From Nitrospirota bacterium (GTDB lineage: Bacteria; Nitrospirota; Thermodesulfovibrionia; Thermodesulfovibrionales; JdFR-88): DNA of 64,000 nucleotides. The DNA lies in contig JAKAKS010000009.1 in NCBI GenBank assembly GCA_021813405.1, positions 26,390-90,389 on the forward strand, given 5' to 3'. The notes under the pieces were generated by a model. It searched no databases and was not told the origin of the DNA. It saw only the letters and a list, made by a program, of their open reading frames with translations. Below are positions 43,910 through 47,106 of this stretch, piece after piece (the first letter of the stretch is position 1; the number at the start of each line of letters is the position of its first letter). Made by a program: the position numbers and the translations under genes.

Positions 43910-45112
43910 TTAAGCGAAACGCTCTCTGATAGAGTTTACTATTCTGTATTTCCATGCGAGGGAACGGCTAACCGTATACGGAGAGAGCACGGAATCCTTG
44001 CCTATAATATATTTATTGCCCCTCCAGGCAACTCCCTGAGAAAAGATGGGCACAAACCAGATGAGCCCGATGAGAATGTCCTTTAATGGCACAAGCAGAT
44101 ATGAAAGCGGGTGCATCCCCGTCCCGGTTTCTTTTCCGATGTACAGGTCGCCCGCTATCTTGAGCATGCTTGTAAAAAGGGCCAGCATAATCGCGGAGCG
44201 AACAGGGCCCAGAATAAAAAGCGGCATGGCCGAGGTGAATACGGGGTTGGCCGCCAGTTCCGAAACGTATTTTGCGCCGCCAATCTTCCAACGCAGCTTG
44301 CCCCACCTTGTGTGCCGGTTAAGGAATTTTTTGATCCCCCAGTAATGGTTTACATTCTGTATCCGGTATGGCGAGAGCACAACCCTCTTGCCGCTTTCAC
44401 CCATCTTTTTGCCAAGCAGATAATCCTCCGCAAGCACGTCCTTTACGCCGTGCAGTCCGCCGATGGCCTCCAGATCTTTCTTCCTCATTAGCATGGACTT
44501 GCCCACAACGCATGGCAATTTCAAAAATCTGTCCAGAAAACACACGCTGCCCATTATAAAGGAATTCATATGAAGGTTCTCCAGCACGGAGCCGGCGGTG
44601 CGCCCGCCCACGCCTTCAATTAAATTAGATACAAGGCCAACGTTGGGGTCATTCATCGGGGACACGGTACTTTTCAGGTATTGCCTGCCTGCCTGGACGT
44701 TGCTGTCACTAATTAATATGTATTCGTATTTTGCGGCATCATATGCGGCCATCAGGTTGTTTACCTTCGGATTCAGCCCCGCATTGCACCTTTTGGCCAC
44801 TATCCTGATGTCTTTGCCGGGGTATTTGTTTTTGACCTTCTGAGCAACCTTGCAGGCCTGGTCGTTCATGTCCTGAAGGGCGAATATCAGCTCGTAGCGG
44901 GGATAATCGAGATGGCAAAAGCTTTCAAGGTTGTCAAAAAGGTTGTCGTCCAGCCCTTTAAGCGGCTTTAATATCGAAATTGGCGGGGTATAGTCTGTCT
45001 GTATACCTTCATTATTTTCTTGCTTTTGAGCGGCGGCCCGTATAGACCAAAGCTGCAGCCCGTAGCATAAAAGACCAACTGCGGTGAGGGCCGAAAATAT
45101 TTGCGTGGTCAT
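43910..45112 (-). CDS. GT21/GT2 glycosyltransferase homologous to ceramide glucosyltransferase (also the family of hopanoid HpnI)
   Basis: The 400-aa ORF has [67 protein letters not shown], LAEDY and [11 protein letters not shown] ((Q/R)xxRW). By eye it is collinear with animal UGCG. Confidence 0.8.
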   Translation of the reverse strand: [400 protein letters not shown]

Positions 45113-45119
45113 GTTCCTC

Positions 45120-45809
45120 CTAATTTCTGAAGAGGGTGATCGCCACCCCCTTGTTGTGCCTTATGCATTGTTTTACCGATTCCACATCCTTTTCACAGTT
45201 CAGCAGGGTCTTCCAGGAGTATAAGTGCCTTGGCTTGTGAAAATCGCTGTTTGCTATGTAGTGGTATTTTTTCAGACTGATGACGTTGAATACATCATCC
45301 CTGTTTGCGATCTCCCAGGCGTCTATGTGCCTTGCGTATTTGTCCCTGTTGTTCCACAGGTACAAGGTGTCTCTGGAATTGTCCGAAAGATGATGCGGGT
45401 GGCACGCAACCGTGATGGCATCCTGTCTTTTAGCTTCCAGGAATATTTTTTCGTAACTCATGCAGGCCGGGATGAATTCTTTTACGTCCAGCACCAGTAT
45501 ATGGGCAGACATGTCAATGGAGATATGGTTTTTGCTTATCTCGACACCGGGAATAACAAGCATCCCGTACTTGTCCCAGGCCCGTCGTGCCTGCTGCTGC
45601 ACGGCTGCCATGTATTCATCAAAGTTGTCCCCCCTTACGGAAAATCTGAATCTTTGGGCAAGTTTTCCTAACAGGTTGTCCCCGTTTACAACGTGGTCCG
45701 TTATTGCGATAACATCAAAGCCGGCCTGTCCGTAAAGGTCTATGACTCTTCCCAATTCCACTGACCCGTCTGAATATGTAGTGTGGATATGGAAGTCGCA
45801 TAACAACAT
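45120..45809 (-). CDS. PHP-domain metal-dependent phosphoesterase
   Basis: The 229-aa ORF has CDFHIHTTYSDGS, AITDH, PGVE and ACHPHH, which form the PHP His/Asp ladder. Confidence 0.8.
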   Translation of the reverse strand: MLLCDFHIHTTYSDGSVELGRVIDLYGQAGFDVIAITDHVVNGDNLLGKLAQRFRFSVRGDNFDEYMAAVQQQARRAWDKYGMLVIPGVEISKNHISIDMSAHILVLDVKEFIPACMSYEKIFLEAKRQDAITVACHPHHLSDNSRDTLYLWNNRDKYARHIDAWEIANRDDVFNVISLKKYHYIANSDFHKPRHLYSWKTLLNCEKDVESVKQCIRHNKGVAITLFRN

Positions 45810-45867
45810 CTTGTTTGATTTTAAAAAAGAAAAATTACAGGATTATTTCAGACAGGTGAAATTTCAA

Positions 45868-47106
45868 TTAAAACGTGCTGTTTTTTATTATTCTGGAATA
45901 AAACGAGGCCGCGGCGGTGGGGTTCCGCTCGAAAGTGTCAAAGTCCACGCTGTAAAGCCCGAACCTGGAATCGAAGCCCTGTATCCACTCATAATTGTCC
46001 ATCAGGCTCCAGTAAAAATATCCCCTTATGTCCAGCCCTTCTTTAATGCACCTTTCAACGGCCCCGATGTGCCTGGAAAGATAACTTATTTTCCTGTTTG
46101 CGTCCCTGGTAGCGATCCCGTTCTCGGTGATTATAAGGGGAACGTTCAGCATGGAAGCGTATCCCAGCACTTTCCGGAGACCTCTGGGATGGACCTCCCA
46201 TCCCATGTCGGTTAGCCCTTCCCCGTCCAAATCGCGGTGCCTGAGCTCGGCCCCCATTTTCTTAAACGGGTTGAATCTCATATGCACGCGGGTATAGTAG
46301 TTCACGCCGAAAAAATCAAGTTTGCCCTTTACCGGCACCGGAATCTTTATGGCCCTGCCGAGAGGGAAGCGGACCTCCAGCACGCCGCTCATGAACGCAT
46401 CTATAATCGAATGATTGTAAAAATGTGTGGCTATCCTTGACAGAAGCTTATCTGCCGGATTCCAGCGATGCCAGGGGGATATTGCCGCCATATTGTGGGC
46501 AACGCTTACCATTGCACCCGGGATGTTATCATGGAGAATAGCATAAGCCGCGCTATGGCAGGTCAGTATGTTCTCTAGTGCCTTGAGCGCCAGTTTGGTG
46601 TCCTTGATGCCCGGCGGCATGCAGCCCTCCAAATAACCGCCAAGCAGGAGCACATAGGGCTCATTGAAGGTAATCCAGTAGCGCACGTTTTTGAATTCTG
46701 GCGCGATCTTTTCCACGAACCGGAGGAATTTATCCCGGGATGTTTCCATATGCCAGGGGTGATTGCGGATGAACCATATGGGGTGCGTAAAGTGATGGAT
46801 CGTGACCATCGGTTCTATTCCGCTTTCGCCAAGCAGGTCCACGATGCGCCTGTAATGGTTCAGCGCCTTTTCATCCCATCTGCCGTCTTCGGGTTCTATC
46901 CGGCTCCATTCCACGGAAAACCTATAAGCGTTTACACCGATCTCCTTAAGCAGGCGCAGGTCTTCCCGGTATAGCTTGTAATGGTTTGCAGCCAGAGGCC
47001 GCTCTTTCATGGCCGGGTCCCATTGTGCCCAATCAGAGGACGGCGAGCCTTCAAGCTGGAATGCCGAAGTGGCCACGCCCCACAGGAATTTATCTTTTTT
47101 GTCCAT
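45868..47106 (-). CDS. glycoside hydrolase family 1 beta-glucosidase
   Basis: The 412-aa ORF has FLWGVATSAFQLEG, YRFSVEWSRI, the acid/base Glu in TFNEP, the nucleophile Glu in ITENG, and YFYWSLMDNYEW. Confidence 0.9.
   Translation of the reverse strand: MDKKDKFLWGVATSAFQLEGSPSSDWAQWDPAMKERPLAANHYKLYREDLRLLKEIGVNAYRFSVEWSRIEPEDGRWDEKALNHYRRIVDLLGESGIEPMVTIHHFTHPIWFIRNHPWHMETSRDKFLRFVEKIAPEFKNVRYWITFNEPYVLLLGGYLEGCMPPGIKDTKLALKALENILTCHSAAYAILHDNIPGAMVSVAHNMAAISPWHRWNPADKLLSRIATHFYNHSIIDAFMSGVLEVRFPLGRAIKIPVPVKGKLDFFGVNYYTRVHMRFNPFKKMGAELRHRDLDGEGLTDMGWEVHPRGLRKVLGYASMLNVPLIITENGIATRDANRKISYLSRHIGAVERCIKEGLDIRGYFYWSLMDNYEWIQGFDSRFGLYSVDFDTFERNPTAAASFYSRIIKNSTF

Follow-up and report, generated by a model that had tools for sequence, protein, structure and literature searches.

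We analyzed a 64,000-nucleotide stretch of an uncultured Nitrospirota bacterium of the Thermodesulfovibrionia (assembly GCA_021813405.1, contig JAKAKS010000009.1, positions 26,390 to 90,389), here called the window, in which three genes lie side by side on the minus strand. These encode a family GH1 beta-glucosidase of 412 amino acids (45868-47106), a metal-dependent phosphoesterase of the PHP family of 229 amino acids (45120-45809), and a family GT21 glycosyltransferase of 400 amino acids (43910-45112) whose catalytic domain resembles that of the eukaryotic ceramide glucosyltransferase UGCG. A first-pass annotation of this DNA had described three co-oriented genes with a 7-nucleotide gap between the PHP and GT21 genes, and the open reading frames match that description exactly. 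What the annotation overlooked is that the strictly conserved partner of the glycosyltransferase is the PHP phosphoesterase and that this partner appears tied to a phosphate-starvation (Pho) regulon. The reading that we favor, with modest confidence for the module as a whole, is that the PHP and GT21 genes form a Pho-controlled operon of Thermodesulfovibrionia that makes a phosphorus-free beta-hexosyl lipid.

Results

The TAG stop codon of the PHP gene ends at 45120 and the ATG of the GT21 gene begins at 45112. An AGGAGG Shine-Dalgarno sequence for GT21 (45116-45121, minus strand) overlaps this stop codon, which suggests that the translation of the two genes is coupled. The spacer between the GH1 and PHP genes is 58 nucleotides long and harbors a promoter-like element that overlaps the GH1 stop codon, and the three genes probably do not constitute one simple operon. 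The same three genes are found on a contig of a metagenome-assembled genome (MAG; JAJYLE010000175), where the proteins are 93-99% identical to those of the window and the glycosyltransferases 98% identical.

The conservation of the locus was assessed in 23 genome loci, 80 independent metagenome loci, and several single look-ups (individual loci carry labels such as L005). The metagenome loci were found with an alignment of seven glycosyltransferase sequences, and those returned were mostly from the Nitrospirota clade. Neighbor counts refer to the 49 related loci whose flanking sequence is 4 kb or longer, and PHP adjacency refers to the 58 informative loci. The PHP gene lies immediately upstream of GT21 (at most 200 nucleotides away) in 50 of the 58; in 5 others, it is found at another place in the locus. 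The gap between the two genes is 3-95 nucleotides across 17 genome loci. Rearranged loci also keep PHP within the lipid cluster, the order being GH1-GT21-PHP in L072 and GT21-OlsF-flippase-PHP in L108. Among the other recurrent neighbors are pstSCAB, PhoH2, and PhoB/PhoR-like pairs ahead of GH1, and the pstS, pstC, and pstB genes near PHP-GT21 exceed their NCBIfam equivalog cutoffs. At least one gene of Pho type or for phosphorus-free lipids (pst, PhoB/PhoR-like, PhoH2, OlsF-like, or flippase) is present in 33 of the 49 loci. An OlsF-like bifunctional aminolipid synthase directly follows GT21 in 15 of 47 loci and is itself followed by a flippase-like LPG_synthase_TM protein; it scores 397 bits on the OlsF model (cutoff, 620) and also matches the glycine-lipid models GlsB and GlsA. 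One locus, L030, encodes an alkaline phosphatase as well as OlsA-like and OlsB-like proteins as a split pair. PlcP-like homologues were found in none of the 49 related loci.

Some observations on these loci stand beside the counts. The order GT21, OlsF-like, LPG_synthase_TM is seen in L008 (11743-14722) and in 12 metagenome loci (e.g., L088, L093, and L096), and P0364, a GT21 with 45% identity, also directly precedes a flippase-like gene. The assembly GCA_028064195.1 has two distinct GH1-PHP-GT21 clusters in different contexts (L033 and L038), with glycosyltransferases 74% and 73% identical to that of the window; the cause is a real duplication or else a mixed bin. A magnetosome-type protein with MamS/MamX domains is also encoded in L033, a hint at magnetotactic bacteria among the relatives.

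The element in the spacer upstream of PHP (45832-45875, minus strand) is composed of four direct repeats (TTTAAT, TTTCAC, CTGAAAT, and CTGTAAT) with an 11-bp period, and a -10-like hexamer, TAAAAT, is found at 45818-45823 (minus strand), 8 nucleotides before the PHP ATG. Because this hexamer is so close to the start codon and no Shine-Dalgarno sequence lies between them, the PHP mRNA is probably leaderless or nearly so, with GT21 coupled through its own Shine-Dalgarno sequence; pstS and GT21, unlike PHP, have clear AGGAGG sites. The upstream regions of pstS and PHP from different genomes have the same four (T/G)TAA(C/T) direct repeats, spaced by exactly 11 bp and with a -10 box after them. PhoB-dependent promoters classically carry tandem 11-bp repeats instead of a -35 box. 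From the position before pstS and the geometry of the repeats, we infer that the motif serves these bacteria as their Pho box and is bound by PhoB.

A position matrix was built solely from the pstS upstream regions of six other genomes and used to scan the window and 30 shuffled versions of it. The site at 45832-45875, 22 nucleotides before the PHP ATG, scored 21.1 bits, while the maximum in the shuffles was 13.2, and the two best scores of the window are both in this gene island, the other being 24.9 bits at 40663-40706. The element precedes PHP in 18 of 19 genome loci. In the independent metagenome loci, where a site had to reach at least 14 bits within 200 nucleotides upstream of the gene, one was present before PHP in 31 of 37 and before PstS in all 10 loci; the corresponding numbers were 1 of 63 for GT21, 1 of 19 for GH1, and 0 of 11 for OlsF. 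The distance from the end of the motif to the PHP ATG was 21-22 nucleotides in 22 of the 31 PHP sites. A generic scan of 43500-47400 for sigma-70 promoters and terminators gave no excess over shuffles.

The glycosyltransferase matches Pfam Glyco_transf_21 (PF13506) with 148.3 bits (cutoff, 21.7) over profile positions 1-173 of 174. A phmmer search aligned its residues 41-285 with the solved "ceramide glucosyltransferase" chains 26qs and 26qf (E 3e-42; 148 bits), giving 36% identity to UGCG over approximately 245 catalytic residues and leaving the C-terminal regions unaligned. The aligned blocks include NPKINNLM, SDS/CDS, AEDY/AEDY, and RHTRW/RMIRW (window/UGCG), and the catalytic residues D84, D136, and E229-D230 as well as the (Q/R)xxRW motif (R266-x-x-R269-W270) are in register with UGCG. 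The definition of GT21 by the D1-D3 aspartates and (Q/R)xxRW reportedly goes back to Marks et al. in 2001. Eleven positions (K49, P50, D84, N114, K116, D136, E229, D230, R266, R269, and W270) are invariant across 35 diverse bacterial GT21 relatives. The collinearity with UGCG claimed in the first-pass annotation was borne out, since every block quoted for it is visible in this alignment; two amendments are that one block reads LNPK and not INPK and that the blocks are GT21-wide and not specific to UGCG.

The RHTRW sequence is of the (Q/R)xxRW type typical of processive beta-glycosyltransferases, and there are secondary matches to GT2 families in Pfam and a weak one to PgaC in NCBIfam, all of which would suit a processive beta-glycan or oligosaccharide synthase whose product is trimmed by the GH1 enzyme. 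We consider such a role very improbable. The dominant match is to the full-length GT21 domain, and hydrophobic stretches are predicted by hydropathy only at about residues 294-358, corresponding to about two helices, fewer than expected of a channel-forming synthase. The characterized GT21 members that we considered all glycosylate lipids, and the neighboring OlsF-like and flippase-like genes are lipid genes and not export machinery.

The best NCBIfam model for the glycosyltransferase is HpnI (TIGR03472), with 245.1 bits over the full length. We computed a neighbor-joining tree of the GT21 catalytic domain with 200 bootstraps in which the alphaproteobacterial GT21 proteins were those of L025, L026, and L027. 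Support was 100% for the Nitrospirota GT21 clade, 97.5% for HpnI, 100% for UGCG with its close relative, and 100% for the alphaproteobacterial proteins. The Nitrospirota clade shares a side of the tree with HpnI and was paired exclusively with UGCG in 0 of 200 bootstraps and with HpnI in 0 of 200, and UGCG grouped with the alphaproteobacterial clade with moderate support (68%). The placement against UGCG, HpnI, and other bacterial GT21 proteins, which had been proposed in the first-pass annotation, consequently puts the enzyme in a Nitrospirota clade of its own that is sister to neither UGCG nor HpnI. The identity of the window protein to UGCG (36%) is higher than that to HpnI (27-31%) or to alphaproteobacterial GT21 (26-27%). 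However, an exhaustive search retrieved 783 clusters (50% identity) at an E value of at most 1e-30, the top 150 of which are all nearer to the window protein than to any reference, and at least 150 bacterial clusters score at least 194 bits compared with 148 bits for UGCG. Because UGCG is not the closest relative and forms no exclusive group with the clade, these comparisons indicate that the 36% identity is a family-level resemblance and not orthology. We agree with the earlier annotation that the acceptor lipid cannot be read from the sequence alone.

That annotation also held open an HpnI-type function, i.e., the addition of N-acetylglucosamine to bacteriohopanetetrol. The best-scoring model and the side of the tree would favor it, and a flippase-like LPG_synthase_TM gene occurs both near true hpnI and in several members of the Nitrospirota clade. 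The score is, however, below the equivalog cutoff of 310, and HpnI is monophyletic to the exclusion of this clade. True hpnI sits with hpnJ and hpnK, no homologue of which was found in the 49 related loci or in the region of the window, and nothing like the Pho-type context was seen in the two hpnI loci that we inspected. We therefore set this function aside as largely refuted. In the literature, we found no paper linking HpnI with ceramide glucosyltransferase.

The phosphoesterase matches Pfam PHP with 33.7 bits (cutoff, 26.4) and aligns over its whole length with TM0559 of Thermotoga maritima (PDB 2ANU; E 2.5e-65), a structural-genomics protein without an assigned function, including the metal-ligand blocks DFHIHT (HxH), ITDH, GVEI, AHP, and NSDFH. 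It has no segment resembling a transmembrane helix in a hydropathy analysis and should be soluble. Assignment as a pAp or histidinol phosphatase was rejected, as the NCBIfam matches cover N-terminal fragments and, with 25-30 bits, fall far short of the cutoffs. A plasmid search found no homologue of this TM0559-subfamily protein, and literature searches for TM0559 returned only matches to the Salmonella locus tag STM0559 and general papers on PHP proteins. Besides the canonical PHP gene ahead of GT21, L059 has a second, divergent PHP paralogue with 40% identity (2950-3627), which lies upstream of GH1 and next to genes for a kinase and a PhoB-like regulator.

The PHP enzyme could be unrelated to a lipid step, being a general scavenging esterase of the Pho response that acts on nucleotides, pAp, or glycerophosphodiesters, with the GH1 enzyme an ordinary beta-glucosidase of sugar catabolism. 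Such an explanation would account for the weak matches to nucleotide-type and histidinol-type PHP phosphatases, for the annotation of some relatives as 3',5'-nucleoside bisphosphate phosphatase, and for the absence of GH1 from about half of the loci. The identity of PHP across the clade is 77-90%, far above the 55-75% of GT21, as expected for a housekeeping-type substrate. The scavenging explanation is less easily reconciled with the near-universal adjacency of PHP and GT21, with the short gaps and the Shine-Dalgarno sequence over the stop codon, and with the rearranged loci L072 and L108, which retain PHP in the lipid cluster. Moreover, the order of phosphoesterase and then GT21 recurs in Alphaproteobacteria with a nonhomologous esterase, and the GH1 enzyme is of a type associated with hydrophobic aglycones (see below). 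Taken together, we find a function outside lipid metabolism improbable.

The GH1 protein matches Pfam Glyco_hydro_1 with 291 bits and has both catalytic glutamate motifs, TFNEP (acid/base) and ITENG (nucleophile). It lacks a signal peptide and a transmembrane segment, as a cytoplasmic enzyme would. The best solved relative is 1VFF, with 308 bits over the full length (412 versus 423 amino acids), whereas ordinary soluble beta-glucosidases give at most 227 bits and two atypical entries (8in1, an ancestral reconstruction) give 294 and 270 bits. Action on beta-glycolipids has precedents in this family, such as GBA3 and the plant galactolipid transglycosidase SFR2, which remodels beta-glycolipids. 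We take 1VFF to be the membrane-bound Pyrococcus horikoshii beta-glycosidase BGPh, a GH1 enzyme reportedly described by Akiba et al. (2004). BGPh is membrane associated and prefers beta-glucosides whose alkyl chains are long, and its relatives hydrolyze steryl glucosides (PMC4687101). The window enzyme has the same short architecture and both catalytic glutamates and may share the preference for a lipid aglycone; unlike BGPh, it is bacterial and encoded beside a lipid glycosyltransferase.

GH1 is present in 26 of the 49 related loci. In close relatives it is adjacent, whereas elsewhere it is inverted or lies at a distance of 2-7 kb, and in L068 and L118 the genes are directly joined in the order GH1-GT21. 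In L123 and L126, distant clade members without PHP, GH1 is still directly ahead of GT21. More distant GT21 relatives (39-50% identity) have NMO-like, M50 protease, ArsP_2, NAGPA, and T2SSF proteins among their neighbors and no common partner apart from GH1 in two loci. The suggestion in the first-pass annotation that the glycosyltransferase and the glucosidase build and trim a glucosylated lipid head group gains support from 1VFF as the closest solved GH1 relative and from this recurrent association.

A putative ceramide backbone operon on the minus strand of the window (10243-13516) encodes, by Pfam, an SDR protein, an Spt-like alpha-oxoamine synthase (AOS), and a GNAT protein. The best NCBIfam match of the AOS is serine palmitoyltransferase, with 571 bits (cutoff, 640), above BioF/Kbl with 411 bits, and the GNAT protein has no curated match. 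The trio of Spt, bCerS, and CerR defines the bacterial ceramide pathway, and the genes are often clustered (PMC11334938); the three genes of the window match this cluster in composition. The operon is kept in L041 and L044, and in a related MAG the genes on either side of it are the same as well; ceramide may be available as an acceptor in this organism. Upstream of the operon, at 13820-17965, are genes for an M48 peptidase, a sigma-54 activator, and a histidine kinase, whose order matches that in L041, which suggests a conserved regulatory unit for the ceramide-type operon. The MAG GCA_021790095.1 has two paralogous GNAT (bCerS-like) copies (L128, 858-1982; L130, 608-1729) on short contigs, neither with a called Spt-like gene next to it, and the GNAT family may not be restricted to the ceramide-type operon.

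These genes, some 30 kb from GT21, raise the alternative of a dedicated glycosphingolipid pathway in which GT21 is a glucosylceramide synthase fed by the Spt-like operon and the GH1 enzyme a glucosylceramidase. It overlaps with the Pho-controlled module that we favor, and the sole difference is that ceramide is the physiological acceptor. In its favor, the identity to the solved ceramide glucosyltransferase is higher than that to HpnI or alphaproteobacterial GT21, and the operon is in the same window and kept in relatives. Reports from the Black Sea describe glycosylceramides whose source is presumed to be anaerobic bacteria. The Agrobacterium GT21 enzyme Pgt, which makes glycosyl-diacylglycerols, prefers diacylglycerol, and has a predicted Pho box, also accepts ceramide (PMC3972451). 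On the other side, homologues of Spt, GNAT, and SDR were found in 0 of the 49 related loci, and the link between GT21 and the Spt-like operon drawn in the first-pass annotation comes down to a shared 64-kb window. The matrix scan of the window gave no Pho-box-like site near the Spt-like operon. The phylogenetic data, with no bootstrap grouping the clade with UGCG, UGCG leaning toward the alphaproteobacterial clade, and many bacterial clusters closer than UGCG, also speak against it. The ceramide glycosyltransferases identified in Caulobacter belong to GT4. We regard the dedicated pathway as rather unlikely, and equally so that ceramide is the physiological acceptor of GT21, although this would be compatible with the Pho-controlled module.

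In L044-L047 (e.g., L044, 4191-5285), a GT4 gene (364 amino acids) is convergent to and immediately after the SDR-AOS-GNAT operon. Because GT4 is the family of the Caulobacter ceramide glycosyltransferases, this protein is an alternative candidate for ceramide glycosylation, and its position also weighs against GT21 in that role.

Other genes of the window are consistent with a trimmed form of the neighborhood seen in relatives, in which the PhoB-like regulator, a porin, an EAL protein, and a kinase/receiver pair are kept. The PhoB-like response regulator of the OmpR family (39907-40617, minus strand) scores 253.6 bits on the NCBIfam PhoB model (cutoff, 296) and 271 bits on YycF (cutoff, 340), and it shares 58% identity with the L005 regulator that adjoins a PhoR-like kinase upstream of GH1. 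An outer-membrane porin (41217-42668, plus strand), with weak Alginate_exp and DESULF_POR1 matches, is preceded by a cluster of Pho-box-like sites between it and the phoB-like gene (40663-40797, plus strand; 24.9, 12.7, and 12.4 bits). A further half-site with a TATACT -10 box is seen near 40990-41040 in this region of approximately 600 nucleotides (40620-41216). A homologous porin is directly upstream of PHP in L014, L087, L089, and L092, and the porin of the window may be a phosphate-starvation porin.

Divergent from GH1 are the genes for a CBS-domain histidine kinase (47261-48469, plus strand) and a single-domain response regulator that pairs with it (48486-48863, plus strand), both recognized by Pfam, and in several relatives this pair sits between GT21 and pstS. 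The weak Pho-box-like site before the kinase gene (47165-47208, plus strand) is borderline, with 13.6 bits compared with the shuffle maximum of 13.2, and homologous kinases carry Pho-box-like sites in 6 genome loci. Some of the strongest such sites, with up to 65 bits before f20/pstS, are carried by two small conserved open reading frames, f14 (approximately 110 amino acids; L005, L007, and L021) and f20 (145 amino acids, before pstS; L013, L018, and L023), which may be unrecognized members of the Pho regulon. The region 35070-39653 encodes a 1,474-amino-acid protein with PPDK_N and PEP-utilizer domains only at the C terminus and about 1,000 N-terminal residues without a Pfam match, and it is followed by a tRNA-Leu(CAG) gene at 39570-39653.

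Discussion

The conserved pairing of a PHP phosphoesterase with a GT21 glycosyltransferase behind a motif common to pstS leads us to propose the following scheme. When phosphate is scarce, a PhoB-like regulator would bind the four direct repeats, spaced by 11 bp, that replace the -35 box and turn on a leaderless PHP mRNA, in which GT21 follows and is coupled in translation. The soluble PHP enzyme would strip the phosphate-containing head group from a membrane lipid or lipid precursor, with phospholipid, phosphatidate, and phosphosphingolipid as candidates, and thereby free phosphorus and expose a lipid hydroxyl, as in diacylglycerol or ceramide. That the specific role of PHP is to remove a phospho-head group and so provide GT21 with its acceptor is a tentative assignment, which we make with clearly less confidence than that of the module as a whole. 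The membrane-anchored GT21 could then move a hexose from a UDP-sugar to the lipid hydroxyl on the cytoplasmic face. The cytoplasmic GH1 enzyme of the BGPh type, directed at beta-glucosides with hydrophobic aglycones, may trim, turn over, or rearrange the sugar head group. In many relatives, the OlsF-like aminolipid synthase and the flippase-like protein would complete a cluster for phosphorus-free lipids beside pstSCAB.

By analogy, the closest functional counterpart is the proteobacterial lipid-renovation operon. In Proteobacteria, the phospholipase C gene plcP lies immediately upstream of glycolipid glycosyltransferase genes, and these plcP clusters contain Pho boxes (PMC4796936). The likeness to the plcP-agt and plcP-Pgt operons, the latter in Mesorhizobium and Agrobacterium, extends to the order of phosphoesterase and then lipid glycosyltransferase, the tight spacing, the Pho-box-type promoters, and the nearby genes for phosphorus-free lipids. 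Such genes matter under phosphate limitation in Desulfovibrio alaskensis, where agt and olsF are needed for fitness (PMC5193443). In contrast to the plcP operons, the esterase of the Nitrospirota cluster has a PHP fold of the TM0559 subfamily and is not an LpxH-like metallophosphoesterase of the calcineurin type; moreover, a BGPh-type GH1 enzyme is an extra recurrent partner and the host is an anaerobic member of the Nitrospirota. Two alphaproteobacterial plasmids (L026 and L027) have a GT21 gene annotated as "ceramide glucosyltransferase" that overlaps the end of a gene for an LpxH-like metallophosphoesterase, which scores far below the LpxH cutoffs.

The relationship to individual glycosyltransferases is looser. 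With L025, L026, and L027 standing in for Pgt, the Pgt-type GT21 proteins of Rhizobiales and that of the window are in separate clades with 26-27% identity, but the window has in silico the Pgt-type traits of a Pho-box-like motif, here common with pstS, and a phosphoesterase gene upstream. UGCG belongs to the same CAZy and Pfam family and has (Q/R)xxRW in common with the window enzyme without being its sister group, and HpnI has a flippase-like neighbor in common with it, while in the loci compared hpnJ and hpnK are found only at true hpnI. The Caulobacter enzymes Sgt1 and Sgt2 are GT4 proteins for which no phosphoesterase or GH1 partner has been described, whereas the window enzyme is a GT21. 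The presence of the Pho-box-like motif at the glycosyltransferase operon of the window and not at the Spt-like operon can be noted as a likeness to Sgt1/Sgt2.

Several points weigh against a Pho-controlled lipid operon. The pst, PhoR, and OlsF genes are absent from the window, which has only the PhoB-like regulator and the motifs. The motif is AT rich, and 13% of all upstream regions of open reading frames in these Pho-rich loci reach 14 bits. GH1 is not only missing from about half of the loci but also seldom has a motif of its own. The phosphoesterase could be a general phosphate-scavenging enzyme that merely shares the promoter, and we know of no PHP-family enzyme that acts on lipids. For every member of the clade, the support comes from sequence.

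The two more ambitious proposals can also be combined. The PHP enzyme would then be a new lipid phosphodiesterase or phosphatase, analogous but not homologous to PlcP and possibly acting on phosphosphingolipids, and the Nitrospirota GT21 a hexosylceramide synthase of the UGCG family; we consider it unlikely that both hold. If they did, PHP, GT21, and the BGPh-type GH1 enzyme would constitute a build-and-trim glycosphingolipid cycle, which could explain why anoxic waters and sediments contain glycosylceramides that have been ascribed to anaerobic bacteria. With ceramide as the acceptor, GT21 would to our knowledge be the first bacterial counterpart of the eukaryotic glucosylceramide synthase and would provide a gene marker for the glycosylceramides of anoxic environments.

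In conclusion, the replacement of phospholipids by phosphorus-free lipids is a major microbial answer to phosphate scarcity, and most of what is known of the genes for this renovation (PlcP, Agt, Pgt, and OlsF) comes from Proteobacteria. The locus described here would represent a conserved alternative in anaerobic Nitrospirota, often sediment dwelling or magnetotactic, in which an unrelated esterase of the PHP fold takes the first step and a lipid-type GH1 enzyme has been added. It also offers a candidate first function for the TM0559 family, whose structure has been solved while its role is unassigned, and a candidate Pho box for a phylum that has seen hardly any genetics.

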